Below are positions 3,369 to 33,851 of a stretch of 33,851 bases of DNA, one piece after another (position 1 is the first letter of the stretch; each line of letters starts with the position of its first letter). The notes under the pieces were generated by a model. It was not told the origin of the DNA. It saw nothing but the letters and a program-made list of their open reading frames with translations, and did no database searches. The position numbers and the translations under genes were made by a program. The DNA is taken from assembly GCA_027039625.1 (NCBI GenBank), contig JALWDQ010000633.1, forward strand, positions 1 through 33,851, written 5' to 3'. This stretch comes from Calditrichia bacterium. GTDB lineage: Bacteria > Calditrichota > Calditrichia > RBG-13-44-9.

Positions 3369-4466
3369 GTGAATACGGAAAGGCGACATATTTTTTATGC
3401 CGTGCTGAATATGGGGTTAGGGCACGCCACGCGCAGTTTACCAGTGATTCAGGCGCTGTTGCAGCAAGGCTATCGGGTGACGGTGGGGAGTTCCGGACGG
3501 GCGCTGATATTTTTGCGGCAGGAACTTCCGGAAGCGCATTTTCTGGAGCTTCCGGACTACAATTTGACTTACTCCGAAAAAGGGGTACAACCTGCGGCAC
3601 TGCTGCTGCGGCTTCCCGCTTTGATGAAGAAAATTCGGGAAGAACATCACGTTTTGCAGCAGTACCAGCGTCGGTTTCCTCTACATGGAGTTATTTCGGA
3701 CCATCGCTATGGCTGCTATCTCCCGGGATTACCTTCGTATTTTCTCATTCATCAGTTGCGGTTCATCGCTCCTGCTCCCTTTCGCCGTCTGGAAGGGGTG
3801 GGTGTGACGTTTAACCGCTTTTTTGGGAAGCGCTACGGGGCAGTGCTGGTACCGGACGAACGCAATTCGCCGCAGAGCGGTGGCATCCTGACGGGCAGAC
3901 TAACTCGGGTGAAAAAGAGTATCCCAATTTATTTTACCGGCATTCTCTCCAGTTTACCGGTGGAAACAACCGCAGGAGCACCCATTGATGTGCTTATTTC
4001 CATTTCCGGTCCCGAGCCACAACGCACGATTCTGGAAAAAATTGTGCGGAGGCAGCTTGGGGAGATTCCCGGTCGGAAAGTGGTTTTGCTGGGAAAACCG
4101 GAAGAAACCTCTCCGGAGCATTTACCCGATGGCACGGTGATTTATCCTCACCTCTCCCGTCACCGCATGGGCGAATTGTTCAACCGCAGCCAGCTAATTG
4201 TGAGCCGTTCCGGTTACAGCACGGTGATGGAGCTGGCGGAACTGGGAAAACGCGCTCTGTTTATCCCCACCCCGGGGCAAACGGAGCAGGAGTACCTGGC
4301 CTGGCGCTACCGCAAGCACGGCTGGTTCCATGCTGCCAGTCAGTTTGGATTGAAATTGGGCGAAGAAATTGCCCGGGCAAGGCAGTTTCCGGGCTTCCCC
4401 CGGCGGTTTTCCACCCGGCAGTCTGTTCAGCGAATTCTGTCGCTATTAGAAAAAGAACTTGAATGA
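3369..4466 (+). CDS. GT-B fold glycosyltransferase (GT1/GT28, MurG/MGT-like)
   Basis: GTG start. N-terminal LNMGLGHATRS motif typical of MGT/GT28-like enzymes. C-terminal SRSGYSTVMELAELGKRALFIP nucleotide-sugar binding motif. Confidence 0.7.
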   Translation: MNTERRHIFYAVLNMGLGHATRSLPVIQALLQQGYRVTVGSSGRALIFLRQELPEAHFLELPDYNLTYSEKGVQPAALLLRLPALMKKIREEHHVLQQYQRRFPLHGVISDHRYGCYLPGLPSYFLIHQLRFIAPAPFRRLEGVGVTFNRFFGKRYGAVLVPDERNSPQSGGILTGRLTRVKKSIPIYFTGILSSLPVETTAGAPIDVLISISGPEPQRTILEKIVRRQLGEIPGRKVVLLGKPEETSPEHLPDGTVIYPHLSRHRMGELFNRSQLIVSRSGYSTVMELAELGKRALFIPTPGQTEQEYLAWRYRKHGWFHAASQFGLKLGEEIARARQFPGFPRRFSTRQSVQRILSLLEKELE

Positions 4467-4467
4467 A

Positions 4468-4640
4468 AAATTCCAAATTACAAATCCCAAATAACAAAAG
4501 ACAAATTCCAAAATCCAAATTCCAAATGTCAAAAAAACCGAGGCGATCGCAACGAGCGCAGCGAAAGCTCAAATTCCGGATAACAAATTCCAAATCAAAA
4601 ACAACAAAAAAACGAACTCCACATCACAAATCCTAAATGG
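4468..4640 (+). repeat. degenerate heptanucleotide tandem array 1 (consensus AAATTCC)
   Basis: In-phase heptads aaattcc/aaattac/aaatccc/aaataac/aaaagac/aaattcc/aaaatcc/aaattcc/aaatgtc/aaaaaaa occupy 4468-4537. A 33-nt insert (4538-4570) interrupts the array, which resumes at 4571-4640. Confidence 0.85.
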
Positions 4641-4681
4641 TTTAACATATTCTTTTTTTCCTAATTCAATCATTATTTTCC

Positions 4682-4734
4682 ATTCGTCCTTATTCGTGTT
4701 ATTCGTGGTTAAGTGCTTTTTTGTGTGATTCGTG
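4682..4734 (+). repeat. ATTCGTG heptamer cluster 1 (iteron-like)
   Basis: attcgtc at 4682; attcgtg at 4692, 4701 and 4728. Spacing is 10, 9 and 27 nt. Confidence 0.85.
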
Positions 4735-4802
4735 GTTAATGATTACTGGGAGGCGGAGGAATTGAACAAGCCTTATTGCCTGGCTCTCTTGAGGTGAGCC
4801 AC

Positions 4803-4845
4803 ATTCTGTCATTCTGAGCGGAGCGTTAGCGGAGCGAAGAATCTC
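4803..4845 (+). repeat. short dispersed-repeat-like module (gtcattctgagcggagcg..ggagcgaagaatc)
   Basis: Internal direct repeat agcggagcg x2 (4817-4825 and 4829-4837). It resembles the 'cattctgagcgaagcgaagaatc' type of intergenic repeat that yields junk ORFs (..LRMTE..) in many environmental genomes. Confidence 0.5.
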
Positions 4846-4922
4846 TTCTACATTACATGGAATAATCTTTCTTCGTATCAAAATAATACAGCTTGAGATG
4901 GTACTCTAAAATTATCAATACG

Positions 4923-4978
4923 AAATTCTAAACTACAAATCCCAAATTTCCAATCCCAAACAACAAATTCCAAATTCC
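4923..4978 (+). repeat. degenerate heptanucleotide tandem array 2 (AAATTCC-like)
   Basis: Eight in-phase heptads: aaattct/aaactac/aaatccc/aaatttc/caatccc/aaacaac/aaattcc/aaattcc. Confidence 0.85.
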
Positions 4979-5025
4979 GATAATTTAATAGATTCTTTCC
5001 GAATCTAATATTTTCCTTATTATTA

Positions 5026-5092
5026 ATTCGTGCATATTCGTGTGATTCGTGGTTAATAATTCGTGGGTAAGTTTCCATCCGTACAATTCGTG
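5026..5092 (+). repeat. ATTCGTG heptamer cluster 2 (iteron-like)
   Basis: Exact attcgtg at 5026, 5036, 5045, 5059 and 5086. Spacing is 10, 9, 14 and 27 nt. Confidence 0.85.
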
Positions 5093-5165
5093 GTTTTATT
5101 GATTCCGGCGATCTCGATAATTTTAAAACCCAATTCAAAATTCTTAATTCAAATTTCAAAATTAT

Positions 5166-5248
5166 TTCTGTCGTCCTTACAGGACTTAAAATGATGGGTG
5201 GAATTCACCTTCCCATGGCTGAAGGCCATGGGCTAAATTCTGTCGTCC
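5166..5248 (+). repeat. hairpin-containing repeat module bounded by an 11-nt direct repeat
   Basis: ttctgtcgtcc occurs at 5166-5176 and 5238-5248. An 8-bp hairpin pairs cccatggc (5212-5219) with gccatggg (5225-5232). A small hairpin gtcct/aggac lies at 5173-5185. Confidence 0.6.
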
Positions 5249-5354
5249 ACTCCGTGAACTCATCCCCTGCCAGCCGATAGTTTTTAAATCCTAAGAATCT
5301 ATTCCGACCACCTGGAGTATCCGGTTAAAAAATATCTTTTCTAATTATTGAAAC

Positions 5355-5471
5355 AAATCCCAAACAACAAATCCCAAATCACAAACGAAATTCCAAACCC
5401 CAAATCCCAATTAACAAAAAACAAATTCCAAGTCTCAAATAACAAGCATCAAATTCCAAATTCCAAATGAT
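5355..5471 (+). repeat. degenerate heptanucleotide tandem array 3 (AAATTCC/AAATCCC)
   Basis: About 16 heptads, with one 5-nt irregular unit at 5383-5387. The array ends ...aaattcc/aaattcc/aaatgat. Confidence 0.85.
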
Positions 5472-5511
5472 TAAGAGAATTTTTACACAATCTAATCATT
5501 TCTTTTTTTTC

Positions 5512-5564
5512 ATTCGTGTTTATTCGTGTGATTCGTGGGCAAATATCAATTCTTTTAATTCGTG
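5512..5564 (+). repeat. ATTCGTG heptamer cluster 3 (iteron-like)
   Basis: Exact attcgtg at 5512, 5522, 5531 and 5558. Spacing is 10, 9 and 27 nt, identical to cluster 1. Confidence 0.85.
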
Positions 5565-5692
5565 GTTTGAATTTTTAGAAGCTTTTGTACTCGCAAAATC
5601 AGTAACCCTCCAGCATGGGGTTTCGGGAAGAAAGCACCAAAACCATATTGGTTTTTTTCGTATTGTTTTTAAAGGGTGAATTATTTATTTTT

Positions 5693-6036: not shown

Positions 6037-6040
<4 letters not shown>
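5750..6040 (+). CDS. gatC: Asp/Glu-tRNA amidotransferase subunit C
   Basis: 96 aa. Typical GatC sequence (VEHLAHLEALEFTPEEKQKIATELERILEYVRQLEEVDTTGVEP). Confidence 0.85.
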
Positions 6041-8407
<2,367 letters not shown>

Positions 8408-8420
8408 AAAGGGAATTGGT

Positions 8421-8795
8421 ATGGCAGTTTACCGGGTGAAAAATTTTGAGGAAATTGACTTTGTGGCAGTAAATCCCAGCGAAGATGTGTTCGAGCTGGA
8501 AAATGGTAAAAAATATCGATTTAGCGATCATATTTGCCATAATTGCTGGTCGGGGGGGACCGTACTGGAAACGGTGGAAGGGGAAACGGATTATTTTTGC
8601 CTGTTGTGCCAGAACCATTTAACCTGGCGAAAATTTGAAAACGATTTTCTTCCGCCCACCGGGGATATGCTGGATTTTCTGCTTCCGGTGGAATGGGGAG
8701 AAGAAGAATTAAATGAGTGGTGGAAAGAATACAAAATTAAACGTCTTGCCGAGGAAGAGGTGAAGAATCAAATCCTGGCTTCCGGCAAAGAATAG
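8421..8795 (+). CDS. hypothetical CxxC...CxxC zinc-ribbon protein
   Basis: ORF with CHNC-x20-CLLC. The ATG at 8421 is preceded by aaaggga. An alternative ATG at 8400 overlaps the pyrG stop codon. Confidence 0.5.
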   Translation: MAVYRVKNFEEIDFVAVNPSEDVFELENGKKYRFSDHICHNCWSGGTVLETVEGETDYFCLLCQNHLTWRKFENDFLPPTGDMLDFLLPVEWGEEELNEWWKEYKIKRLAEEEVKNQILASGKE

Positions 8796-8809
8796 CTTCT
8801 GAAAACAAT

Positions 8810-9640
8810 ATGGTCGAATTAAACGAAATCAAAATAGGGCCGCAGCAGCCCTTAACCATCATTGCGGGTCCCTGTGTGGTGGAGGGCGAGCAAATGATTC
8901 TGGAAACAGCCACCGCCCTCCGGGAAACCACCCACGATTTGCCTGTGCAGTTAATTTTTAAGTCATCTTATCGAAAGGCCAATCGCACTGCGTTAGACGG
9001 TTTCACCGGTCTGGATTTTGTGGAAGCGCTGGGAATTTTACAGAAAGTCAAAGAGCAGGTGGGTTTGCCGGTGCTAACGGATGTGCACAACGAACTGGAA
9101 GTGCCCGTGGTTGCCGAAGTGGCGGATGTTTTACAGATTCCTGCCTTTCTATCGCGCCAGACGGATTTGCTTCTGGCGGCAGGCCGCACCGGACGGGTGG
9201 TAAACATCAAAAAAGGGCAGTTCCTGGCACCGGAGGACATGGAAAAAGCCGCGGAAAAAGTCGCCAGCACCGGGAATCGTCGGATTCTGTTAACCGAACG
9301 CGGTACCACCTTCGGTTATCGTAATCTGGTGGTGGACATGCGCAGTTTGGTGATTCTGGCGAAAACCGGTTATCCGGTGGTGTACGATGCCACCCACAGT
9401 GTGCAACGACCCGGAGGGTTGGGCCATGCCAGCGGAGGCAACCCCGAATTCATCCTGCCACTGGCCCGGGCGGCTCTGGCTACCGGCGCAGTGAGCGCTA
9501 TCTTTATGGAAGTGCACCCCGAACCCTCCCGCGCCTTAAGCGACGCAGCTACCCAGTTACCACTTCGCTATTTTCGAGAGGTAGTGGAGCAACTGGTTGC
9601 ACTCTACCAATTCATTCAGGAACAACCTCCACTGAGCTGA
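8810..9640 (+). CDS. kdsA: 2-dehydro-3-deoxyphosphooctonate aldolase (Kdo-8-P synthase)
   Basis: IAGPCVVE, FKSSYRKANR, LTDVH, IPAFLSRQTDL and DATHSVQ motifs. Confidence 0.92.
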   Translation: MVELNEIKIGPQQPLTIIAGPCVVEGEQMILETATALRETTHDLPVQLIFKSSYRKANRTALDGFTGLDFVEALGILQKVKEQVGLPVLTDVHNELEVPVVAEVADVLQIPAFLSRQTDLLLAAGRTGRVVNIKKGQFLAPEDMEKAAEKVASTGNRRILLTERGTTFGYRNLVVDMRSLVILAKTGYPVVYDATHSVQRPGGLGHASGGNPEFILPLARAALATGAVSAIFMEVHPEPSRALSDAATQLPLRYFREVVEQLVALYQFIQEQPPLS

Positions 9641-9658
9641 TTGGGAAGGAAGATAAAT

Positions 9659-10222
9659 ATGATAAGAGAAGGTCAAATCAGTCAGGATGTGCTGGAGCGG
9701 GCTAACCGCGTCCGGGTAATTTTGATGGATGTGGATGGGGTGTTAACCGACGGTTCCATTGTGTACGATAGCAATGGTGTGGAGATTAAACACTTCAATG
9801 CCCAGGATGGGTTGGCATTTAAACTTGCCAGTGCGGTGGGGTTGCGTACGGGATTTATCTCGGCCCGGGAGAGCGGTGCCATTCACCGCCGGGCTCAGGA
9901 TCTGGGAGTGGATTTTATGCATCTGGGTTCTTATCGGAAATTGGCAGCCTATCAACAACTCAAAAATTCTTTGAAATTATCCGACGAGTATTTTTGTTAC
10001 ATTGGCGACGATTTGCCGGACATTCCGGTGTTACGACAGGTGGGGCTGGCTGTGGCGGTTCGCAATGCGACAGAGCTGGTGAAAGAAACGGCGCATTACA
10101 TTACCCAACGCTCTGGCGGAGAGGGAGCCGTGCGCGAGGTGGTGGAGCTCATCCTCAATGCCCAGAACTTGCTGGAAAAGGCAGTGAATTGTATTTTACA
10201 TCCTGATGAAGCGTGTGAATGA
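9659..10222 (+). CDS. kdsC: Kdo-8-phosphate phosphatase (HAD-IIIA)
   Basis: MDVDGVLTDG HAD motif I and GDDLPD motif. The ATG at 9659 is preceded by ggaagga. The ORF-track TTG at 9641 is less likely. Confidence 0.85.
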   Translation: MIREGQISQDVLERANRVRVILMDVDGVLTDGSIVYDSNGVEIKHFNAQDGLAFKLASAVGLRTGFISARESGAIHRRAQDLGVDFMHLGSYRKLAAYQQLKNSLKLSDEYFCYIGDDLPDIPVLRQVGLAVAVRNATELVKETAHYITQRSGGEGAVREVVELILNAQNLLEKAVNCILHPDEACE

Positions 10223-10445
10223 GAGCGATTCAGAGAAAAGGTTTTTCTTTAGAAAAGGAATAAGGTTCTTGGAAATATTGTGATTTTTCCGGAAGTGGAC
10301 AGGTTTCAATTTTAGGTGGGATAATTCGGTTATTTTTCTTAATTTAACAGAAGAAATAAACAGGATTTGCCCGGGGAGGAATTCGTAGGGTTTTTAGCGT
10401 TCTAAATTACAAAAACAGAGCTTTTGAGAGAGGCGGATTGGCACG

Positions 10446-11468
10446 GTGAAGGAGAATCAAAAAGAGATTTCCGAAGCTTTTGCGAAGGTGAAAGAACCTA
10501 ATTCCCGGGAGGATTCGCTTACCATAGCCCGCCGGGTAGTGGAGCAGGAAATTCACGCCTTGCATCAACTGCAGCAAATGCTGGATGAAAATTTTAATCG
10601 GGCGGTGGAACTGATCCTCTCCCGAAAAGGCCGGGTGATTGTAACGGGATTGGGGAAATCCGGTGCCATTGGCCGTAAGATTGCCGCCACACTGGCTTCC
10701 ACGGGAACCGCTTCCTACTTCTTGCATGCTTCCGAGGGGGTTCATGGCGATCTGGGAATTGTTCACAAAGATGATGTGGTGATTTGCCTTTCGAAAAGTG
10801 GTAATACGGATGAGTTGAATTTTCTCATCCCGGTATTCCGAAAACTGGGTGTTCCCATCATTTCCATCACCTCCAATCCGGAATCGGTACTGGCACGCCA
10901 CAGCGATGTGGTGCTTAATCTGGGGGTTAAAGAGGAAGCCTGTCCTCACGATCTGGCACCTACTTCCAGTACAACCGCTATGGTGGTGCTGGGAGATGCC
11001 CTGGCGATTGCGCTTCTGGAAAAGCGCCATTTCACCCAGGAAGATTTTGCCTTTTTGCACCCGGCTGGCTCCCTGGGGAAGCGCCTGATTACCCGGGTGG
11101 ACGACTTAATGGAAACCGGCGAGCGTGTTCCTTATGTGTCCCGGGATGCGACCATGAAGGAAGCCGTGCTGGAAATGGCTTCCAAAAGGGGTATTTGTAT
11201 GATTGTTGACGACCAGATGCACATTCTGGGTGTCATTACCACCGGGGATTTAAACCGATTGGTGGAACGTACCGAGCAGTTCTTCAACATTCCGGTTACC
11301 CGGGTCATGAATCCCAATCCCAAGATTATCCGCAACAACACGCTGGCCTATACGGCTTACAAAAAGATGGAAGAATATCGCATCATTGCCATGCCGGTGA
11401 TTGATGAACAGGAACGGCTAATTGGGGTGATTCACCTCCATGATATCATGCGGGCAGGTATTTTTTAA
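10446..11468 (+). CDS. kdsD: arabinose-5-phosphate isomerase (KpsF/GutQ family; SIS plus two CBS domains)
   Basis: GRVIVTGLGKSG SIS motif, SKSGNT, and a C-terminal CBS pair. GTG start. Confidence 0.9.
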   Translation: MKENQKEISEAFAKVKEPNSREDSLTIARRVVEQEIHALHQLQQMLDENFNRAVELILSRKGRVIVTGLGKSGAIGRKIAATLASTGTASYFLHASEGVHGDLGIVHKDDVVICLSKSGNTDELNFLIPVFRKLGVPIISITSNPESVLARHSDVVLNLGVKEEACPHDLAPTSSTTAMVVLGDALAIALLEKRHFTQEDFAFLHPAGSLGKRLITRVDDLMETGERVPYVSRDATMKEAVLEMASKRGICMIVDDQMHILGVITTGDLNRLVERTEQFFNIPVTRVMNPNPKIIRNNTLAYTAYKKMEEYRIIAMPVIDEQERLIGVIHLHDIMRAGIF

Positions 11469-11553
11469 ACATCCGGTGCGTTGCTATTCCTCTCCGGAAC
11501 TTTTTCTGTGGAATCGATTTACAAAGTAGTCCGAAATTTAGAGTGGGTAGAAA

Positions 11554-12132
11554 ATGAAATTTATGAACCACCGGGGTATTATCCGGATTCTTCTTTTTAT
11601 TGTAGGAATTGGTTTACTGTCCATCGGGTGTAGTAAACTTGAGGAAGATCAGGTCGCTTCCGAAGGGACGAAAACGGTATTTCCTGATCAGGAGAGCTGG
11701 AAATCCACCATAACCATCACCCGGGAGGGGAAGCGGATTGCGGAGGTGTGGGCGGGATACATTGCTGTGTACAACAATTCCCGTAAAGCGATTTTAAAGG
11801 ATAGTATTCACGTGGACTTTTACGATCGGGAGGGACGGCACAATTCCACGTTAACAGCCGATAGTGGGGTGGTGTACCGGAATACCAATAATCTGGTGGC
11901 AATGGGGCACGTGGTGGTAATTTCGGATAGCGGTGTGGTATTGCAGACGGAACAATTGCGCTGGGACAACAAGCGGCAGAAGATTATCAGCGAAGTACCT
12001 GTGCGATTCACCACTCGCCAGGATACGTTAATTGGCGATGCCTTTATCTCCGATCCGGATTTGAAAAACTACGAGATCACCAACGCCCGGGGGTACTCCC
12101 GGAGGAAAGTCCCTTTGAAAAAACTTCCCTGA
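11554..12132 (+). CDS. lptC: LPS export system protein LptC-like
   Basis: N-terminal membrane anchor or lipobox (LLSIGCS). Size, beta-rich sequence and its position between kdsD and the lptA-like gene fit LptC. Confidence 0.65.
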   Translation: MKFMNHRGIIRILLFIVGIGLLSIGCSKLEEDQVASEGTKTVFPDQESWKSTITITREGKRIAEVWAGYIAVYNNSRKAILKDSIHVDFYDREGRHNSTLTADSGVVYRNTNNLVAMGHVVVISDSGVVLQTEQLRWDNKRQKIISEVPVRFTTRQDTLIGDAFISDPDLKNYEITNARGYSRRKVPLKKLP

Positions 12133-12371
12133 AGCTCCTCCCCATAATCCCTTTACGACAGTTTTCATACTTCAACCCAAAAGTCCGGTTTTCACTTTTC
12201 CGATACAATTCAGGAAAGAATAATCCAATTTTTTTTCTCCGGTGGATGGTTTAAATTCCTGTGCTGAATGCTCGATACCCGGGTTGAAAGCGCTGAACCG
12301 ATGTTGAACCGGGCCAGTTGCTTTGCGGAGGTGGGAATGGGGTAAAATCAAAGGAAATGGGCGGCGAAAGA

Positions 12372-13559
12372 ATGAAGTTAATTTCGCTAAAAAATCAAAT
12401 CGTTTTCACTCATCAACGGAAAAATTCTTTTCTGAAAAAATTCTCCTTTTTGCGGAATTGGTCTTTCTTGTTAGTGATAATCCTTTCTTTCTGGGAGTTG
12501 CCGGGCGGGGGGTGGGCGCAAAGTGCTGGTTCCACACAGCATAGGGGGAGATTGGAGTTAATCCACGCGGATGTATCCCGGGGACAGGAGGTGAATGGTC
12601 AGATATTGCGCATTTTACAGGGGCATGTCCACATTCGGCAAGATTCGCTGGAACTGTTTTGCCAGCGAGCGGTGTACCACGAGCAGAGCCGTCAGGTGGT
12701 GCTAACCGGGGATGTGCAACTCATCCGGGGTAGCGATTCGTTGTTTGCCCGGCGCGTCACTTATTTCGAAGAAAGCCGCATAGCCATTGCCGAAGAGGAC
12801 GTCCGGGTGCGGCGACCTCACCAGCAAATGGATTGCCAGTATCTGGAATATCATTACCAGAACGACCAAATTCTGGCACGGCGGCATCTGTTATTGCGTG
12901 ATCTTTCCAACCAGGTATTCATTTCCGGAGAGCAGGGGGAATATCTTCCGGAAAAGGAATTTGCTTACATCCACCGGCACTCCCATCTCTGGAAGGTGGA
13001 CAGCACCGGTCGCGATACGCTTCACATCTATGCCCGAAAGCTGATTTATCGTTTTGGTGAGGAGAAAGAGGCACTTGCCCGGGATTCGGTTTACATTCGT
13101 CAGGGAGAATTAACGGCAACCTGCGATTCCGCTTTTTATCTGGTAAAAGAACATCGGGTCAAATTGCTGGGTAATCCCCATGCGCTTTATCGGAACAATG
13201 AAATGTTCGGCAAGACCATGGCGCTGGTACTGGATAGCCTGGAGGTGCGCGAAGTACAGATTCGGGGAAATGCCCTGGCGGTGTCGGTAGCCGATTCCCT
13301 GCGGAAAAAGGAAAATCGGTTGTCGGGAAAACAACTCGTCATGTATATTGAGCAGCGTCAATTGCGGGAGATTTGCGCTTTTACCGAGGCGCGCAGTCAA
13401 TATTATCTGGAAGAAGAAGGTGAAGCGCGCGGGGTTAATGTGGCTACGGCTGATACTATCAGAGTGTATTTTACCAATCAGGCGCTGGATAGTATTGCGG
13501 TGATTGGCGGAGCAGAAGGAACCTATTATCCCGAAAATTATCAGGGAGATATTCGCTGA
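12372..13559 (+). CDS. OstA/LptA-like periplasmic protein, elongated (about 395 aa)
   Basis: Repeated OstA_N-like beta-jellyroll sequence (GDV.L.RG.., A..V.Y....). Located between lptC and lptB. The start is ambiguous (ATG at 12357 or 12372, TTG at 12318). Confidence 0.6.
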
Positions 13560-13561
13560 AG

Positions 13562-14326
13562 ATGGCAGATTCCATGGAGCTGAAACAGATTCATTCGTCT
13601 TTGTTGCACACTAAAGACCTGGTGAAAATTTACGGAAAGCGCCGGGTGGTGGATCGGGTGAGTTTACGGGTACGCCAGGGCGAAATTGTGGGATTGCTGG
13701 GACCCAACGGGGCGGGAAAAACCACTTCCTTCTACATGATTACGGGAATGATCCGTCCCAACTCGGGGCAAATTTTTCTGGACGATCGCGATATCACCCG
13801 TTTGCCCATGTACAAACGGGCTCGGCTGGGAATTTCCTATCTGCCGCAGGAACCTTCTATTTTCCGCAAACTCACTGTGGAAGAGAACCTTCTGGCCATT
13901 CTGGAAGTGCTGGGATATTCCCGTGCCGAACGCCGCCGTCGCGCCGACGAATTGATGGAGGAATTGGGGATTATTCACATCGCAAAAAATAAAGGATACA
14001 ACCTTTCGGGAGGGGAGCGTCGCCGCACGGAAATTGCTCGTACTCTGGTAACCAATCCCAAATTCATTTTGCTGGACGAACCCTTTGCCGGAGTCGATCC
14101 CATTGCGGTGCAGGATATCCAGAACATCGTAAAGAAGTTGAAGGATAAAAACATCGGGGTGCTTATTACCGATCACAATGTACACGAAACCCTGTCCATT
14201 ACCGATCATGCCTATTTGCTGTTCGAAGGAAAAGTGCTCAAGGAAGGGGATAGTGAGTATCTTGCCAACGATCCCGAAGCCCGCAAATTGTATCTGGGCG
14301 ATAAATTTCGACTCATCCGTGAATAA
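13562..14326 (+). CDS. lptB: LPS export ABC transporter ATP-binding protein
   Basis: Walker [10 protein letters not shown], signature LSGGERRR, Walker [13 protein letters not shown]. Typical LptB C-terminus (..[10 protein letters not shown]). Confidence 0.92.
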
Positions 14327-18773: not shown

Positions 18774-19520
18774 ATGAAAGAGAGAAAATATCGTAGACCA
18801 CCTATTGTGGAAGTAGTGTGTGAATTCCGATTTAAACATTCTTCCCCATGGGATGCTACAATTCCTGGACTTATCTATCATGAAGTAAAGAAAAAATTTA
18901 CCAGACGTCGTACTTTACGCAATGTGGGTATGCATGTTCAGGTTGAACATAAAGGTGTATTATTTCAGCCCCGGATGGAAGAAGGGACTCAATTTTTACA
19001 GGATGACGAACGGGCTTTTTTACAGTTACAACCGCGCCGTATTTCTGTTCATCATCTGGCACCCTATCCGCACTGGGAAGGATTTAAACCGTTGATCCAG
19101 TTAGCATATAAAGCATACTTAAAAGTTGTCCCTGATGCCACTATACAGCGGATTGGACTTCGTTATATTAATAAAATTAATTTCGATACACCAGAAGTTG
19201 ATTTATCAGCTTTTTTTAATTTTTATCCCTACGTGGGTAGAAAACTACCACAACGTTATACAGGATTTAATCTTCAATTGTTATTTCCCCATGAAGAAGG
19301 AAGAGACGCTCTTCAGATGCGTTTGAGCAACGCACCCCCAGAAAAAGAAAATGCAGCTTCCATTCTGTTAGACATTGATTATTTTCTAATAGATTCAAAG
19401 AATCTTTCTTCAGAAAGGGGATTGGAATGGGTGGAGAAAGCGCATGAAAACATATTGGCGGCATTCGAAGGGGCTATAACCGATAAATTACGACATCAAT
19501 TTGAGGAGGAGAAAGTATGA
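18774..19520 (+). CDS. TIGR04255-like uncharacterised protein
   Basis: The N-terminal signature YRRPPIVEVVCEFRF and the roughly 250-aa length match my recollection of the sporadically distributed TIGR04255 family. Low G+C. Confidence 0.55.
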   Translation: MKERKYRRPPIVEVVCEFRFKHSSPWDATIPGLIYHEVKKKFTRRRTLRNVGMHVQVEHKGVLFQPRMEEGTQFLQDDERAFLQLQPRRISVHHLAPYPHWEGFKPLIQLAYKAYLKVVPDATIQRIGLRYINKINFDTPEVDLSAFFNFYPYVGRKLPQRYTGFNLQLLFPHEEGRDALQMRLSNAPPEKENAASILLDIDYFLIDSKNLSSERGLEWVEKAHENILAAFEGAITDKLRHQFEEEKV

Positions 19521-19963
19521 CATTTGCCATACCTTCATCATTGGGTATTAAAAATATAGATCTAACATCTGGTTCTGGTAATCCACTCTGGGTTGATGAA
19601 GAAATAAATCAGTGGCAAAATAAAACAACTTCACAATTTGAACGTATTAGCATTTTGCCACAATTTTACAAAATTAATCAGCCAGGGGAAGTCTTTAGAT
19701 TTCTATATGACCATCCTGGTTTAATTGAAGTTGTGTTGGAAGCAGTGGAGATTTTACGAAATGTATTCGGACCGGATGCATCTCTGGAACTGGAATTGGT
19801 AACGGATCCAGAAGCGGATGAATCCGAGTTATTTGCCCTGGTAGAAGTCGATATGACTCCTGAAGTAGCCTTGCAAAAACTGGAGGAATTCGATCAAAAT
19901 TGGCTTCTGGATCGAGAAGAAATTACTAAGGGACTTTTTAATGTAGATGTGACGTTTCGATGA
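19517..19963 (+). CDS. hypothetical small protein with acidic C-terminal half (possible antitoxin or adaptor)
   Basis: ATGA overlap with the upstream stop codon. The acidic C-terminal half (LELELVTDPEADESELFALVEVDMTPEVALQKLEEFDQNW) looks like a small antitoxin-like protein. Confidence 0.5.
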   Translation: MTFAIPSSLGIKNIDLTSGSGNPLWVDEEINQWQNKTTSQFERISILPQFYKINQPGEVFRFLYDHPGLIEVVLEAVEILRNVFGPDASLELELVTDPEADESELFALVEVDMTPEVALQKLEEFDQNWLLDREEITKGLFNVDVTFR

Positions 19964-20334
19964 GATTTCAATGGGAAACATTCATTAATCTTGCTGAAAG
20001 GCTACATCAGGAAAGTGAATCCTTTGTGGAAACAGAAGCCTATCAGCGCTCGGCAATTAGCAGAGCCTATTACGGTGCATTTGGATTGGCACGCGAAATT
20101 GCAGTACGTGAAGGTCTTTCTTTAACTTTTACGGGGGAAGACCATAAAAATGTGGAACAGCATTTCCGGGGAAATTCACAAAAATTTCGTAAACAGATAG
20201 GAATAGAGCTGAATCGTTTAAGACGACTTCGGAATAAAGCAGATTCTGCGGAATCAATCTCGGGTTTGCCGAAGGAAACGCGAAAGGCTTTGGTGCAAGC
20301 ACGAAATATTGAATCTAATTTAAAAAAGTTGTAA
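19960..20334 (+). CDS. HEPN-like four-helix protein
   Basis: ATGA overlap with the upstream stop codon. RSAISRAYYGAFGLAREIA resembles classical HEPN helix 1. LRRLRNKADS resembles the HEPN R-x(4-6)-H region, but the His is missing. Confidence 0.5.
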   Translation: MRFQWETFINLAERLHQESESFVETEAYQRSAISRAYYGAFGLAREIAVREGLSLTFTGEDHKNVEQHFRGNSQKFRKQIGIELNRLRRLRNKADSAESISGLPKETRKALVQARNIESNLKKL

Positions 20335-20415: not shown

Positions 20416-21543
20416 ATGCCAGAATATTTTATGTTAGAGCGGATTTTACTGCAAGGGTATAAATCAATTCATGAAGCAGATATTGAGCTTCGCCCTATTA
20501 ATGTGCTGATTGGAGCAAATGGTTCTGGCAAATCCAATTTTATTAGTTTATTTAAGTTTATGAACCGTTTAGTCAATCAGGATTTGCAGAAATATGTATT
20601 ACAATCGGGTGGAGCTGACCAGTTCCTTCACTATGGACGAAAGAAAACTGAGCGACTTCATATTGAACTCTGGTTTAGTAAAAATAATAAATTGGCAAAT
20701 GGTTATGAATGTTCATTAATACCTACGTCAAAAGATTTATTAGCATTCGAAAAGGAAGTAATTTATATTCACAACCGTGAAAAATATAAAAAACCTTACA
20801 TTATTGAAAAAACATTTCGTGTTCATGAAGAAACAATTATACCTAAATGGAAACAAAAACGTGTCCGTGTGTCGAAATATATCATGAAGGCTCTTCAATC
20901 GTGTAAATTGTATCATTTCCACGATACCAGTGATTCAGCCAGAGTTAAACAAACAGGCGATATTCACGACAATCTTTTCCTAAGACCAGATGCCTCGAAT
21001 CTTGCCGCATATTTATTTCTGCTTAAAAAAACGAAACCAGACTATTATCACAATATTGTAGAAACCATTCGTCTGGCTGCACCTTTCTTTGGGGATTTTA
21101 TTCTTCGTCCCTCACCTTTTAATCCTGATAAAATACGTCTGGAATGGAAAGAGAAAGGTTCAGATGTTCTTTTTGGCCCCAATTCACTTTCGGATGGAAC
21201 GCTTCGTTTTATCTGCCTCACCACTCTTTTTATGCAACCACCCGAAAAGTTGCCATCAACTATTGTACTGGATGAGCCTGAACTTGGGTTACATCCCTAT
21301 GCCATAGCTCTTCTGGCAGATATGGTTCGGAGTGTTGCCAAACATACGCAGGTTATCCTGGCAACCCAGTCGGTAACTCTTGTAAATCAATTCCTCCCGG
21401 AAGACATTCTGGTTGTTGACCGAATTGAGGGGAAAACCATCTTCCGACGTTTAACAGAAAAAGAGATGGCTTCCTGGCTTGAAGACTATGGTCTGGGAGA
21501 TTTATGGGAGAAAAATTTGCTGGGGGGACGTCCTGCGTTATGA
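20416..21543 (+). CDS. ABC/SMC-type ATPase (AAA_21/AAA_15-like, OLD/AbiL/PARIS-type ATPase)
   Basis: Walker A GANGSGKSN, ABC signature LSDGTLRF, Walker B IVLDEPELGLHP, switch region ILATQS. An alternative ATG lies at 20431. Confidence 0.85.
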   Translation: MPEYFMLERILLQGYKSIHEADIELRPINVLIGANGSGKSNFISLFKFMNRLVNQDLQKYVLQSGGADQFLHYGRKKTERLHIELWFSKNNKLANGYECSLIPTSKDLLAFEKEVIYIHNREKYKKPYIIEKTFRVHEETIIPKWKQKRVRVSKYIMKALQSCKLYHFHDTSDSARVKQTGDIHDNLFLRPDASNLAAYLFLLKKTKPDYYHNIVETIRLAAPFFGDFILRPSPFNPDKIRLEWKEKGSDVLFGPNSLSDGTLRFICLTTLFMQPPEKLPSTIVLDEPELGLHPYAIALLADMVRSVAKHTQVILATQSVTLVNQFLPEDILVVDRIEGKTIFRRLTEKEMASWLEDYGLGDLWEKNLLGGRPAL

Positions 21544-22208
21544 CAAAAGTGCTTATTTATGTAGAGGGACAAACGGAAGAAACTTTTGTTCGTGATTTAT
21601 TAGCGCCGTATTTCAAACAAAAATGCAGTATTTATTTAATCCCTTCGTTAGCAAGAACAAAACGAACCAGAGCCGGACGAGCGTTTAAAGGTGGGATTGT
21701 TTCATACGGTAAAGTTAAAAAAGATATTTTGAAGTTATTGGGTGACAGGAGTGCTGCATTAGTTACCACTATGTTAGATTTTTATGGTCTCCCCAATGAT
21801 TTCCCTGGAAAGAAATCCCTCTCCTCAGGTTCCCCAACTGATCGTGTTCAACATTTAGAAAAGGCATTTGGGGAGGACATAGCCAGTACTCGTTTTCTCC
21901 CTTTCCTTGTTTTGCATGAATTTGAAACATTTATCTTTGTGCAGCCTGAAAAACTCGCCGAAGCATTGCCCGGATATCTGACGGAAGTTCAAAATTTAAT
22001 TAAAAATGTTGGTCACTTAACTCCTGAAGAAATCAATGAAGGCAGGGACACCCATCCATCAGCACGAATTCTGAAACTATTTCCTACTTATCAAAAAAGA
22101 TTGCACGGACCGCTTATTATCAAAAAAATTGGTCTGAATTTGGTCAGGAGCAAATGCCCTCATTTTAATAACTGGTTCTCTAATTTAGAAAAATTATGCC
22201 CTGGTTAA
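21541..22208 (+). CDS. DUF4276 family protein (TOPRIM-like)
   Basis: The ATG at 21541 overlaps the ATPase stop codon (ATGA). N-terminal IYVEGQTEETF, central LHEFETFIF and C-terminal HPSARIL...CPHFNNW match my recollection of DUF4276. Confidence 0.65.
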
Positions 22209-30581: not shown

Positions 30582-32105
30582 TTACGATTCAATCTCCCGA
30601 AGTTCCTGCTCAATTCGTTTAACCACTTCTGCTTTGCGAAACAGGGAAATAAATTCATCGGGTGTTTCTGCCATCAACAATTTGCTGCGAATTTCTCCAT
30701 CCCGCAGAATACTGGCGATATTCGCCAGGGTTTGCAGGTGGCAGAGCCGCCGATTGGGAGAACTCACCACAGCAAAAATTAAATTTACCGGTTGGCCATC
30801 CGGGGAGTTAAACAATACCGGCACTTGTGGACGGTAAGCGATCACCCGCATCCGATTAATTATAGGAGAGATGACGTGCGGTACGGCAATCCCCGAACCG
30901 ATCCCGGTACTCAATGTGTTCTCCCTCCGGAAAAATTCGTGCACCAGCTGGGCATAGTTGGTGGTAATATTTAAATCCGCGAGCAGTTGACTGATTTCCT
31001 GCAAAATAGTTTCTTTACTGCGTGCTTTTCCATCCAGCACGATGAGAGAAGGCTCCATGAACTGACTCACCGAAACGAAGCGCACTCGCCGTTGTTTGCG
31101 GATTTCTTCCAGCAAAATTAAGTCTTCCTCACCCAGATTCCGTTTTTTCTGGTAGGCGGGCAGTAATATAATGGGAGCACGTTCGATTTCGTTGATTTCG
31201 GTTATTTCAATATCGTAGTATCCCAGTTCGTGGCGCACTGTGGTCATTAACTGGTTTCGAAGCGTATCCAGCAGGAAGAGCTTTCCCTGTTGTTCTGCCC
31301 GGATGAACATCACTCGCAAAATACCAAACGCCATTTTACGTAGAGCATCCAGTTGCTGATTGCGATGAATGCGGCATTTTAAATCCACCTGTGCCATGCA
31401 GGAGAGCCCAAATCGACTTTCGATGTCGATAAGCATTCCGGTTTCCACCCCGTATCCTGTAAAGAAGGGGATACGTTCCAGCAGTTCCCGGCGTCCGGCG
31501 TATTCACCAGAAAGGGGTTGATTGAACAGAGCCAGTTGCGGAAAGAGCAGGTTGAAGAGGGGTTTGGCCAGTATTTCAGTAACCCGTCCTCCACCCGTAG
31601 GAGCAAGCTTCATCCCCACCTTTATGGGACGCCGATAAAATCCTTTCACAAAAGAAATCTCGTGATGATAGAGTAGGGGACCGACCAATCCGGTAACGAA
31701 ATGCACATCCATATTGCGGATATCGCTGTCCAGCCAAACAATAATATCACCTCGTGTTACATACAAACTTTTCCAGAGGTTTTCCCCTTTTCCCCGATAA
31801 TCCCCTGTTTCCGGGAGTATCTCCGAGCTTAAATAAACGGTTGCTCCGGCTTTTCGGGCAATTTCCCGCGTACCATCGATGGAACCGCTATCCACAACCA
31901 CAATTTCGTCCAGCAGAGGGTAGCGGTCCATAAGCTGTTTTTTTAGTTTCTTAACAATCTTACCAATCGTAGCAGATTCGTTGAGGGTGGGTAAGCATAA
32001 ACTAATGCTTAGCTTTTGTTTCTCCTTCCGTCTAATAAGTTCGGGAATATTGTTGAATTGTGTGTATGAAAACGTACGTGTTTTAACCCAGGTATTTAAG
32101 TCCAT
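30582..32105 (-). CDS. glucosyl-3-phosphoglycerate synthase-like GT81/GT2 glycosyltransferase fused to a C-terminal PTS EIIA (fructose/nitrogen type, PtsN-like) domain
   Basis: GpgS-like motifs: LPTLNESATIG, VVVDSGSIDGT, GKGENLWKS, LDSDI, GGGRVTEILAKPL and QPLSGEYAGRRELLE. EIIA-2 motifs: GIGSGIAVPH and LIFAVVSS. The ATG at 32105 has a perfect SD (aaggag) 7 nt upstream, so the ORF-track TTG at 32129 is unlikely. Confidence 0.8.
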   Translation of the reverse strand: MDLNTWVKTRTFSYTQFNNIPELIRRKEKQKLSISLCLPTLNESATIGKIVKKLKKQLMDRYPLLDEIVVVDSGSIDGTREIARKAGATVYLSSEILPETGDYRGKGENLWKSLYVTRGDIIVWLDSDIRNMDVHFVTGLVGPLLYHHEISFVKGFYRRPIKVGMKLAPTGGGRVTEILAKPLFNLLFPQLALFNQPLSGEYAGRRELLERIPFFTGYGVETGMLIDIESRFGLSCMAQVDLKCRIHRNQQLDALRKMAFGILRVMFIRAEQQGKLFLLDTLRNQLMTTVRHELGYYDIEITEINEIERAPIILLPAYQKKRNLGEEDLILLEEIRKQRRVRFVSVSQFMEPSLIVLDGKARSKETILQEISQLLADLNITTNYAQLVHEFFRRENTLSTGIGSGIAVPHVISPIINRMRVIAYRPQVPVLFNSPDGQPVNLIFAVVSSPNRRLCHLQTLANIASILRDGEIRSKLLMAETPDEFISLFRKAEVVKRIEQELREIES

Positions 32106-32719
32106 TGCACACTCCTTCTTTTTGGGCAATTGGACATCCCTGTGATTAAATATCCCTTTTGCGCGAGGACCGTGAATTTCTTTTTGCGACGCGTCGTAAT
32201 CTCTATTGAATAAAACTTTCCGCGTGAGGTAGAGTTCCCGTATTAGAGAAAACGAAGTGATGAACCAATGACAAATTTTGAAAATAAAAATTTTGTTCTA
32301 AATCATATTCGGAAGAAAATTGGAAAACTAAATTAAAATGTGATGAAAATTTAGTCAGTTGCAGCGCAAATTTCGACAATCAGAAAAATTAGCATAAAAA
32401 GCCATAATTTTGTAACATCTTGTTTTTAATGAATATATGCTTTAATAGAAATTTTCAGGAATTGGGAAATTAAATGGCATGAAAGTTGTACAATATAATA
32501 GCAGAAGATGAATGGAGTGTAAAGATGTTAACGTCGAGAGATCAGATTAAGAAGATTTTTGAATTTCAGAAACGAAAGTCTCAAGAGTTAAAACGTCAGG
32601 TAACACATTCGTAGGCTCTGGCGCTCTGGTTAACGCAGAAATTGGTGGGGGAGCGTGGTAAAAAGAAAATGGAAAAATCATCTACCGAATTGTTCATTTA
32701 TTAGTAAAGGAGCAAGGAA

Positions 32720-32902
32720 ATGAATCAGAATAGCGATTTTCAAAGACGCCAACTGGATGCCATACAGAATTACTATTTAATGATGAAACATCGGATGAAA
32801 AAGAATATATCCCTGACGGATGCCATTATTTCCTGGTTTACGGAAGGGTATGCAGAGAAATTTCGGGAAGAGTATTTCCGTCAAAATACATTTGCCTCAT
32901 AG
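32720..32902 (+). CDS. hypothetical 60-aa protein
   Basis: ATG preceded by SD aaggag at about -8. A strong terminator lies about 60 nt downstream. No recognisable domain. Confidence 0.4.
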   Translation: MNQNSDFQRRQLDAIQNYYLMMKHRMKKNISLTDAIISWFTEGYAEKFREEYFRQNTFAS

Positions 32903-32962
32903 AGAGAGTTTCATAGGGCCTCCTTACCTTCAGGGATGAAATAGTTCTCCTCCTATCGACCG

Positions 32963-32995
32963 GGCCGGCACTGAAAAGTGCTGGCCTTATTTTTT
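32963..32995 (+). terminator. Rho-independent terminator
   Basis: A 10-bp stem pairs ggccggcact (32963-32972) with agtgctggcc (32977-32986), with one G-U pair. Loop gaaa, then ttatttttt. It overlaps the yjbQ stop codon on the opposite strand. Confidence 0.6.
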
Positions 32996-33409
32996 ACCAA
33001 TGAATTGAACTATTAACCGTCGGTGGCGGCTGCGGTTATCGAAGTCCAGAAAAATAATCTGTTGCCAGGTTCCCAACAACAAACGTCCTTTACGAAATGG
33101 AACGGTAAGTGAGGGTTTAAGAAGAGCAGCACGCAAATGGGCGTATCCATTACCGTCGTGCCAGGTGTTATCGTGATGGTAGGACTTTCGCATGGGGATG
33201 ATTTGTTCCAGAAATTCCGGTAAATCCCGGAGTAATCCCGGCTCGTATTCGATGGTTGTTAAAGCACCGGTACTTCCGGGAACGAAAATGGTAACCTGTC
33301 CTTCCTGAAACTGATGTTTCTGTAATAAATCACTCACCTGAGGGGTGATATCAATAATGTCGGTAAATCCTCTGGTTTGTAATTCAAGCTCTTCTGTAAG
33401 GATTTCCAT
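32987..33409 (-). CDS. yjbQ: YjbQ/UPF0047 family protein (secondary thiamine-phosphate synthase-like)
   Basis: Typical family sequence (ITPQV...G.V.IFVPGSTGALTT.EYEPGL..D......P....Y.H..TW.DGNG.AH....LL.PS...P...G.L.LGTWQ.I...). Confidence 0.85.
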   Translation of the reverse strand: MEILTEELELQTRGFTDIIDITPQVSDLLQKHQFQEGQVTIFVPGSTGALTTIEYEPGLLRDLPEFLEQIIPMRKSYHHDNTWHDGNGYAHLRAALLKPSLTVPFRKGRLLLGTWQQIIFLDFDNRSRHRRLIVQFIGKK

Positions 33410-33851
33410 TACTCATCTTTCTCCAGAATTTTATTCAAATCATAAGCAGTTCCGTTAGGTAAGTCCTGTGCGGTAAAATGAATTCCCCGGGACATCAGTT
33501 CTCGAAACTGTTGGACTTCTTCCCGGGAGAGGAACACGTAGGGAAGATATTGATGCCGATTCTCTTTAAAATGTATTCCACCTATATTCACTTCCTGAAT
33601 AGGCACCTGCTGTTCTACCAATTGAATTAAGGTATCCACTGAACGTAATAAGATTAGAGTTAAGTGTTCTTCCTGCATCCAGGATCTGGATTTTTCAGCA
33701 CATTCGGATACGGAAAGAATTTCAACGGGAATATCTGAAGGCGCTGCAATCAAAAGCAGGTTCTTTTCCCACTCATTTTGTGCAATTTCATCATCGCATA
33801 CCACCAGACGTTTAATGGGGAGTTGACTGCACCAACCAACAATCACCTGTC
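33409..33851 (-). CDS. PTS mannose/sorbose-type EIIB domain protein (N-terminus lies outside the window)
   Basis: The frame is open to the window edge (..GQVIVGWCSQLPIKRLVVCDDEIAQN...VNIGGIHFKE..). Its TAA stop codon shares one nt with the yjbQ ATG. Confidence 0.7.
   Translation of the reverse strand, partial: QVIVGWCSQLPIKRLVVCDDEIAQNEWEKNLLLIAAPSDIPVEILSVSECAEKSRSWMQEEHLTLILLRSVDTLIQLVEQQVPIQEVNIGGIHFKENRHQYLPYVFLSREEVQQFRELMSRGIHFTAQDLPNGTAYDLNKILEKDE

Follow-up and report, generated by a model that had tools for sequence, protein, structure and literature searches.

A glucosyl-3-phosphoglycerate synthase fused to a PTS EIIA-2 domain in Calditrichia, Candidatus Eisenbacteria and Spirochaetota

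The fusion gene

The stretch of DNA analysed here (the window) is a contig of 33,851 nucleotides from a Calditrichia bacterium (JALWDQ010000633.1). Near its end lies a complete gene encoding a protein of 507 amino acids, in which an N-terminal domain resembling glucosyl-3-phosphoglycerate synthase (GpgS) is joined to a C-terminal enzyme IIA domain (EIIA-2) of the phosphoenolpyruvate-dependent phosphotransferase system (PTS). A first-pass annotation, made from the letters of the sequence, had described such a one-gene fusion, and both domains are indeed recovered at full length, and far above chance level, by profile searches within one open reading frame (ORF). All five motifs that it quoted are present in the protein: GKGENLWKS at residues 105-113, LDSDI at 125-129, GGGRVTEILAKPL at 171-183, QPLSGEYAGRRELLE at 196-210 and GIGSGIAVPH at 401-410. 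The proposal built upon them is plausible and is weighed below: glucosylglycerate synthesis would, at its first step, be controlled by PTS phosphorylation. What appears to be new is the conserved combination, as the enzyme and the regulatory domain are each already known.

The features are as follows.

30582..32105, minus strand: complete gene for the 507-residue GpgS-EIIA fusion protein, a single uninterrupted ORF with its stop codon at 30582-30584
32112..32117, minus strand: Shine-Dalgarno-like AAGGAG, 6 nucleotides 5' of the ATG at 32105, read from the sequence
31146..32105, minus strand: GT81 (GT-A fold) glucosyl/mannosyl-3-phosphoglycerate synthase domain, residues 1-320 (NF010496, PDB matches, Foldseek)
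31722..31730, minus strand: DxD metal/nucleotide-sugar motif D126-S127-D128, with D126 and D128 invariant, aligning with the DSD of mycobacterial GpgS structures
31062..31145, minus strand: structured helical connector, residues 321-348 (AlphaFold2 model)
30633..31061, minus strand: PTS EIIA-2 domain (Ntr/Fru/Mtl-type), residues 349-491 (Pfam PF00359, Foldseek)
30876..30878, minus strand: CAC codon of His410, the predicted phospho-acceptor, in the motif STGIGSGIAVPH (conservation among fused homologues)
30585..30632, minus strand: C-terminal helix particular to the family, residues 492-507, lying past the end of the Pfam EIIA domain (AlphaFold2 model)
33409..33851, minus strand: orphan sorbose/mannose-type EIIB gene, cut by the contig end, given as context only (PF03830, 5e-31)

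As an uninterrupted ORF the gene runs over 30582..32129 and opens with a TTG codon at 32129. The ATG at 32105 was taken as the start codon instead, because the AAGGAG element at 32112-32117 supports it; the resulting length of 507 residues and the N-terminus agree with those of the homologues. A protein 99% identical to that of the window (P0001) served as its stand-in in the database comparisons.

The glycosyltransferase half

The N-terminal half is a member of the GT81 GpgS enzymes by curated cutoff, motifs and fold, and the earlier assignment of this region is thereby borne out. The protein passes the NCBIfam equivalog for GpgS (NF010496) with 373.6 bits (cutoff 262); this match spans residues 3-313 and positions 5-303 of the 307 in the profile. 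The Pfam domain Glycos_transf_2 covers residues 35-141 (1e-14). In a PDB sequence search the best match to residues 5-278 was a mannosyl-3-phosphoglycerate synthase (MpgS) of Rubrobacter (3f1y, 6.9e-71), with mycobacterial GpgS at about 1e-60. Foldseek aligned the N-terminal part with GpgS and MpgS structures (3kia, 7pdo and 4dec) at TM-scores, relative to the target, of 0.86-0.94. An alignment of 104 sequences shows no variation at K106, D126, D128, R174, T176, R245, H247 and N249, and these residues align with the matching motifs of crystallised GpgS enzymes in the PDB search. The domain carries all the features expected of an active glucosyl-3-phosphoglycerate synthase and is apparently catalytically competent.

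The characterised relatives, GpgS of M. tuberculosis (Rv1208) and M. hassiacum and MpgS/GpgS of Rubrobacter xylanophilus, have the same fold (TM 0.86-0.94) and share the DxD motif and the substrate-binding residues with the fusion protein, at 37-41% identity in the Foldseek alignments. They are single-domain enzymes of approximately 300-390 residues, whereas the fusion has 507 and includes a PTS domain. We know of no characterised GpgS or MpgS with a PTS domain, nor of any description of post-translational control of these enzymes by the PTS.

The EIIA-2 half

The C-terminal half matches the Pfam domain PTS_EIIA_2 (PF00359) over residues 349-491, nearly the whole profile (positions 2-143 of 144), with 101.2 bits against a cutoff of 27 (6.5e-29). 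IIA-Ntr proteins were matched to residues 348-490 in a PDB sequence search (3e-15 to 4e-12, with 2a0j at 3e-15), and also by Foldseek, in which the C-terminal part superimposes on 2a0j with a TM-score of 0.92 and an rmsd of 1.4 A, and on 1a6j, 3urr and 4gqx with TM-scores of 0.84-0.88. The predicted phospho-acceptor His410 stands in GIGSGIAVPH, with Arg394 and Glu395 upstream. It is kept in 98 of the 99 fused homologues. In the main clade of these (n=90), His410, Gly405, Ala407 and Pro409 occur in every member, Glu395 in 89, and Arg394 and Thr400 in 88 each. The comparison spans proteins of 45-65% identity from three phyla, and such conservation reflects strong purifying selection on the EIIA active site and is the signature of a working phosphotransfer site.

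A Pfam scan of the fusion protein revealed no EIIB, EIIC or PRD domain. Since neither EIIB nor EIIC is attached, the protein is not a PTS permease. In this respect it differs from MngA of E. coli, the EIIABC protein for uptake of 2-O-alpha-mannosyl-D-glycerate, which is likewise a PTS protein handling a glycosyl-glycerate: MngA is a membrane transporter that has EIIB and EIIC and phosphorylates its solute, whereas the fusion is a soluble synthase that has neither. The model for MngA (NF007293) is matched weakly, via the EIIA-2 domain (1.3e-12; 47 bits, cutoff 763).

PtsN (EIIA-Ntr) has the same EIIA-2 fold (2a0j), the GxGxAxPH motif and the upstream Arg-Glu pair. It controls potassium, osmotic and metabolic targets (TrkA, KdpD and GlmS) via protein-protein contact, but does so as a free protein of approximately 160 residues acting in trans, whereas the EIIA domain of the fusion is covalently joined to its presumed target. 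Unlike ptsN, the fusion gene is not part of an rpoN-hpf-ptsN cluster, and position 456 is usually Tyr in the fused family. A precedent for an EIIA-2 domain (Mtl/Fru-type) that acts in cis, under phosphorylation control and within a non-transport protein, is given by the PRD-containing activators of the MtlR/LicR/ManR type. The output of those proteins is DNA binding and transcription, with PRD and EIIB-like domains, whereas the output of the fusion would be a biosynthetic glycosyltransferase.

Domain junction and predicted structure

Structure prediction of the domains and of the linker, as suggested in the first-pass annotation, shows both domains and a linker that is structured. AlphaFold2, run with the family alignment, yielded a single compact model with a mean pLDDT of 93.5, a pTM of 0.90 and no segment below 50. 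The connector (residues 321-348; pLDDT of the block 82-95) contains helices at 326-329 and 333-339 and is conserved across the family alignment. A C-terminal helix extends over residues 482-506, in which the pattern K..E....I..EL is partly kept across the family. The glycosyltransferase and EIIA domains are, in this model, rigidly connected; a compact arrangement with no disordered linker is more in keeping with allosteric coupling than with loose tethering. Among the Foldseek matches there was no PDB entry that contains both the GT81 and the EIIA-2 part.

Distribution of the fused family

The same fusion, which it had been proposed to look for in other genomes, was found in about 100 clusters with both Pfam domains in a search that drew on NCBI, ENA, JGI and Logan assemblies. 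The proteins are 470-576 residues long (most of them 502-538) and show 40-99% identity. Named homologues belong to the Calditrichia/Calditrichaeota, to Candidatus Eisenbacteria and to metagenome-assembled genomes (MAGs) of the Spirochaetota, one of them labelled Sediminispirochaeta sp., and one is found under Salinispira pacifica, a cultured species with an isolate genome. The nearest named homologues of the window protein, together with synteny to Caldithrix sp. RBG_13_44_9, likewise place the source of the window in the Calditrichia. At 50% identity the family is reduced to three representatives (P0007, P0111 and P0091). In a neighbour-joining tree of the glycosyltransferase half, one large monophyletic clade unites the fused proteins of Calditrichia, Eisenbacteria and Spirochaetia, whereas a divergent fused clade of spirochaetes and P0091 fall outside it; the tree fits one ancient fusion as well as two or three. 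A scan of GTDB genomes for the fusion gave, among the matches listed, a fused gene in 3 of the 80 loci kept, and mostly unfused GpgS.

The first-pass annotation had allowed for two separate genes, joined here by a sequencing frameshift. Such an artefact, or an assembly chimera, is refuted by the approximately 100 independent full-length homologues of about 505 residues from three phyla, including the isolate genome, by the near-identical copies of the window protein on four contigs of different assemblies, and by the conserved and structured connector.

In public databases the fused proteins are annotated either as 'glucosyl-3-phosphoglycerate synthase' or as 'PTS IIA component'. No description of the GpgS-EIIA architecture was found in the literature on GpgS, glucosylglycerate, EIIANtr, PTS_EIIA_2 and the PTS of Caldithrix.

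GpgS was also seen in other fusions (P0095, P0114, P0168, P0129, P0231, P0121 and P0214). Many representatives of about 600-650 residues have a tandem of Usp domains at the N-terminus, the named ones being from Thermoflexus/Anaerolineae (Chloroflexota). The other partners are a C-terminal cpYpsA SLOG domain, a phosphatase (HAD Hydrolase_3 or His_Phos_1), a second GT81-like glycosyltransferase and a GT4 glycosyltransferase. These proteins have the GT81 core in common with the EIIA fusion (54-59% identity for those aligned) but differ in the partner: Usp is attached N-terminally, and the phosphatases and glycosyltransferases are catalytic rather than regulatory. These repeated fusions, to regulatory domains as well as to pathway partners, mark GpgS as a regulated node at which both kinds of joining recur.

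A separate EIIA-like stretch was observed in a Treponema sp. MAG (L039, 2986-3390). It is 31% identical to residues 341-475 of the fusion, the EIIA region, and is situated some 7 kb upstream of a GpgS gene that is not fused; it is the sole case among approximately 80 unfused GpgS loci fetched.

Genomic neighbourhood and other features of the window

Downstream of the fusion gene lies mlaF, in convergent orientation, as part of an mla operon that also comprises mlaD, a gene for an auxiliary lipoprotein and STAS-mlaE. On the other side, about 880 bp separate the fusion gene from the 3' end of the same-strand yjbQ operon, an interval that holds two small ORFs on the opposite strand and a hairpin at 32962-32987. 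The fusion gene is probably monocistronic, since these ORFs and the hairpin set it apart from the yjbQ operon and mlaF is convergent. No sigma-54 promoter of the -24/-12 type was found upstream of 11 fused genes, a scan for sigma-70 promoters and terminators stayed at background level, and Rfam gave no match at the locus (E<=1) or in the whole window (gathering thresholds).

The two small ORFs (32525-32704 and 32720-32902, plus strand) encode paralogous products of about 60 residues with the motif (T/S)xx(E/D)AxxxW(L/F)T and no Pfam match. They are kept beside yjbQ in two other Calditrichia loci (L003 and L088), and a 61-residue ORF occurs at that place in Caldithrix sp. RBG_13_44_9 (L091). 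The first of the two has an in-frame stop at codon 30 in the window, which is absent from a contig that is 99% identical (L001).

The EIIB(Man) gene 1.3 kb away, to which the first-pass annotation had drawn attention, is present at 33409-33851, 1.3 kb from the start of the fusion gene, but it gives no specific support for a functional link. It lacks IIC and IID partners and sits in an operon with a histidine kinase and YjbQ. In L001 the order of the upstream operon is enoyl-CoA hydratase, a histidine kinase of approximately 360 residues, an MtnX-like phosphatase of the HAD-IB type, EIIB and YjbQ, and the full-length EIIB keeps the phospho-His motif RIDDRLIHGQ. This block lies beside the fusion also in L003 (56% identity) and, without the HAD gene, in L088 (63% identity). 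Two other Calditrichia loci with the fusion, L008 and L089, lack the block beside it, and L091, a genome segment that has no fusion gene, has the block at the same chromosomal position. Because the block occurs without the fusion and the fusion without the block, the adjacency is inherited synteny and not a specific linkage, and the presence of EIIB was rejected as specific evidence for a functional partnership with the fusion. Man-type EIIB proteins, moreover, pair with EIIA(Man) and not with EIIA-2. The HAD-IB gene was considered as a candidate for the phosphatase GpgP; this is unsupported, as the product is MtnX-like and the gene is missing in L088.

The operon itself (32987-33851 in the window, minus strand; 6482-9119 in L001), with its histidine kinase of about 355 residues, optional HAD-IB, orphan EIIB and YjbQ, lacks EIIA(Man), EIIC/EIID and a response regulator, and pairs a two-component kinase with a PTS EIIB in an unusual way.

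Elsewhere in the window, a Gram-negative envelope cluster (6037-14326) comprises kdsB, pyrG, kdsA, kdsC, kdsD, lptC, lptA and lptB. In Proteobacteria such a cluster is followed by rpoN-hpf-ptsN, whereas here it is followed by genes for an SRPBCC protein and a methyl-accepting chemotaxis protein with a CZB domain. Between a GT28-like gene and gatC/kdsB, some 1.1 kb (4450-5570) has no convincing ORF and contains three repeat units of about 450 bp, each with a run of 7-nucleotide periodicity (CCAAATn/CAAATTC) followed by repeated ATTCGTGTGATTCGTGGTT motifs; Rfam and tRNA scans of this region gave no match. A low-GC island (20416-22208, with the ORFs at 18774-20334; 34-41% GC against about 48% elsewhere) contains a candidate anti-phage pair, HEC-01A/HEC-01B according to PADLOC, consisting of an AAA_21 ATPase (2.3e-149) and a DUF4276 protein (4.6e-77). 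The pair is preceded by three ORFs that have no Pfam match, one of them with a weak match to HEPN_IX.

Compatible-solute genes near fused homologues and the identity of the product

In other loci the neighbours of the fused gene fit a role in osmolyte and potassium physiology. On an Eisenbacteria chromosome, a distant GT81 paralogue of 419 residues and a small Msc-like protein, presumably a channel, are encoded after the fusion. With the C-terminal half of P0121, in which GpgS is naturally fused to a second glycosyltransferase, this paralogue shares 46% identity; given this resemblance, the two Eisenbacteria transferases probably belong to one pathway, which may lead to a di-glycosyl glycerate. 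Near the fused genes of the divergent spirochaete clade lie those for a GH13_18 enzyme of the sucrose-phosphorylase family, an MggS-like GT4 (6.4e-68) and HAD hydrolases. Glucosylglycerate phosphorylases of this GH13 subfamily, among them one from Spirochaeta thermophila, are reported to adjoin gpgS or gpgP frequently (PMC7178133). Finally, at one Calditrichia locus trkA-trkH are found 1.3 kb downstream of the fusion.

These contexts bear on the product of the fused enzyme, which could also be mannosyl-3-phosphoglycerate or could serve as precursor for a di-glycosylated glycerate; the compound under regulation would in that case differ from glucosylglycerate itself. Either product is compatible with any of the regulatory models. 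In favour of another product are the Rubrobacter enzyme deposited as MpgS, which is the best PDB match in both sequence and fold, the partner glycosyltransferase that follows the fusion in Eisenbacteria, the union of both transferases in P0121 and the MggS-like GT4 close by in spirochaetes. It is nevertheless an unlikely alternative, considering that the cutoff of the GpgS equivalog NF010496 is passed by more than 100 bits and that matches to Osmo_MPGsynth are marginal in the relatives.

Proposed control by phosphorylation of the EIIA domain

The reading favoured here, with a probability of roughly 55%, is that phosphorylation of His410 by a regulatory PTS sets the activity of the attached GpgS. 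The GT81 domain would convert NDP-glucose and 3-phosphoglycerate to glucosyl-3-phosphoglycerate, the committed step towards glucosylglycerate or larger glycosyl-glycerates. A carrier of the HPr/NPr type would reversibly phosphorylate His410, and the phosphorylation state of the EIIA domain would allosterically set the synthase activity, as a cis counterpart of the control that free PtsN exerts in trans over TrkA, KdpD and GlmS. Compatible-solute synthesis would then follow the carbon, nitrogen and energy status of the cell. Speculatively, the phosphorylated form would be the active one and solute synthesis would rise when the PTS is charged, for instance under nitrogen limitation. That direction would match the accumulation of glucosylglycerate under nitrogen deprivation, the regulation of which is termed 'elusive' in a passage of PMC5381378.

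As possible phosphodonors, enzyme I (EI), HPr and NPr of E. coli and HPr of B. subtilis were used as tblastn queries against the window and 95 fetched loci. The sole match was an HPr gene, adjacent to that for HprK, in a Spirochaetaceae MAG with no fusion. A Calditrichia MAG (MFD03804.bin.1.47; L092/L093, 8182-10480) contains a cluster of hpf, HprK, EIIA(Man) and sorbose-type EIIB, and two PTS permease clusters are described in the genome of Caldithrix abyssi (PMC5317091). From this cluster and these permeases it follows that a regulatory PTS exists in the Calditrichia lineage; that it is present in the organism studied here and phosphorylates His410 is what we infer.

Several observations weigh against phosphorylation control of a GpgS. 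The tblastn searches revealed no EI and no HPr or NPr in the window or in the fusion-bearing loci among the 95, and a recognisable GpgP (HAD-IIB MpgP-like or His_Phos_1) was found neither in the window nor within 10 kb on either side of the related loci. The sequence does not reveal whether glucose or mannose is the donor sugar, and the PDB entry that it matches best was deposited as an MpgS. In the EIIA domain, position 456, where many EIIA-2 domains have a second His, is His in the window protein but Tyr in 94 of the 99 family members. The equivalogs for PtsN stay below their cutoffs (TIGR01419, 63.4 against 138.7 bits; NF008145, 51.5 against 221), as does the top-scoring EIIA subfamily, fruA (TIGR00848, 82.7 against 103.5 bits). 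Of the earlier assignment to EIIA(Ntr/Fru) with its conserved His, the EIIA-2 profile, the fold and His410 therefore stand, while the subfamily does not, and the domain is labelled here as a member of the EIIA-2 superfamily and not as PtsN. Lastly, in nine divergent spirochaete members Arg394, Glu395, Gly405 and Pro409 are replaced, with the His kept in eight of the nine. Since these proteins have lost Arg394, Glu395 and Pro409, phosphotransfer by the fused EIIA domain may not be universal.

Some of these points agree with a different role of the EIIA-2 domain, as a structural, oligomerisation or ligand-binding module that is not phosphorylated and that modulates or stabilises GpgS with no phosphorelay. 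Such a module would need neither EI nor HPr at the fusion-bearing loci fetched, it could score below the PtsN and FruA cutoffs, it would tolerate the degenerate active site of the divergent clade (with R394, E395, G405 and P409 replaced), and it would suit the tight and rigid packing in the AlphaFold2 model. We consider it rather improbable, however, because, if there were no phosphotransfer chemistry, the near-invariance of the His, the Arg/Glu pair and G-x-G-x-A-x-P-H across the main clade would be difficult to account for. Even the divergent clade still keeps its His in eight of nine members, and HprK and other PTS regulators occur in Calditrichia and Spirochaetaceae.

The information could also flow in the reverse direction, from the glycosyltransferase, which would sense 3-phosphoglycerate and NDP-sugar, to the EIIA domain, whose altered phosphate exchange would inform the regulatory PTS, with the protein serving as a phosphate sink or partnering with further targets, Trk among them. 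Both 3-phosphoglycerate and NDP-glucose are indicators of central carbon metabolism, TrkA/TrkH adjoin the fusion at one Calditrichia locus, and in E. coli TrkA is an established target of free PtsN. Such a reversal has little to commend it, though, as all catalytic residues of the glycosyltransferase are invariant, which suggests a working enzyme rather than a sensor, the gene contexts indicate biosynthesis and turnover of solutes, and no precedent for the arrangement is known.

Implications

If the EIIA domain is not phosphorylated, the finding reduces to a domain architecture that has so far gone unannotated. A more far-reaching generalisation, that a regulatory PTS phosphorelay directly gates compatible-solute synthesis via an EIIA domain within the biosynthetic enzyme, is put forward tentatively, as somewhat less probable than its opposite. 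If true, it would be the first EIIA-2 cis-regulatory switch of a glycosyltransferase, as far as the literature and database searches show.

PtsN-type EIIA proteins connect the nitrogen and carbon status with potassium and osmotic homeostasis, and their targets have been found singly, by interaction screens. The fusion would then be a natural 'Rosetta stone' that links this signalling to the accumulation of glucosylglycerate, as well as a tractable single-polypeptide model for the control of a target by EIIA-Ntr and for the allostery between EIIA and target. Several bacteria accumulate glucosylglycerate when nitrogen is scarce or under salt stress, and the control of its level is described as elusive (PMC5381378). 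The occurrence of the fusion in the cultured Salinispira pacifica makes experiments feasible, and a conserved polypeptide that unites the committed enzyme of the pathway with an EIIA domain would offer a direct and testable hypothesis for how the accumulation of glucosylglycerate may be controlled.

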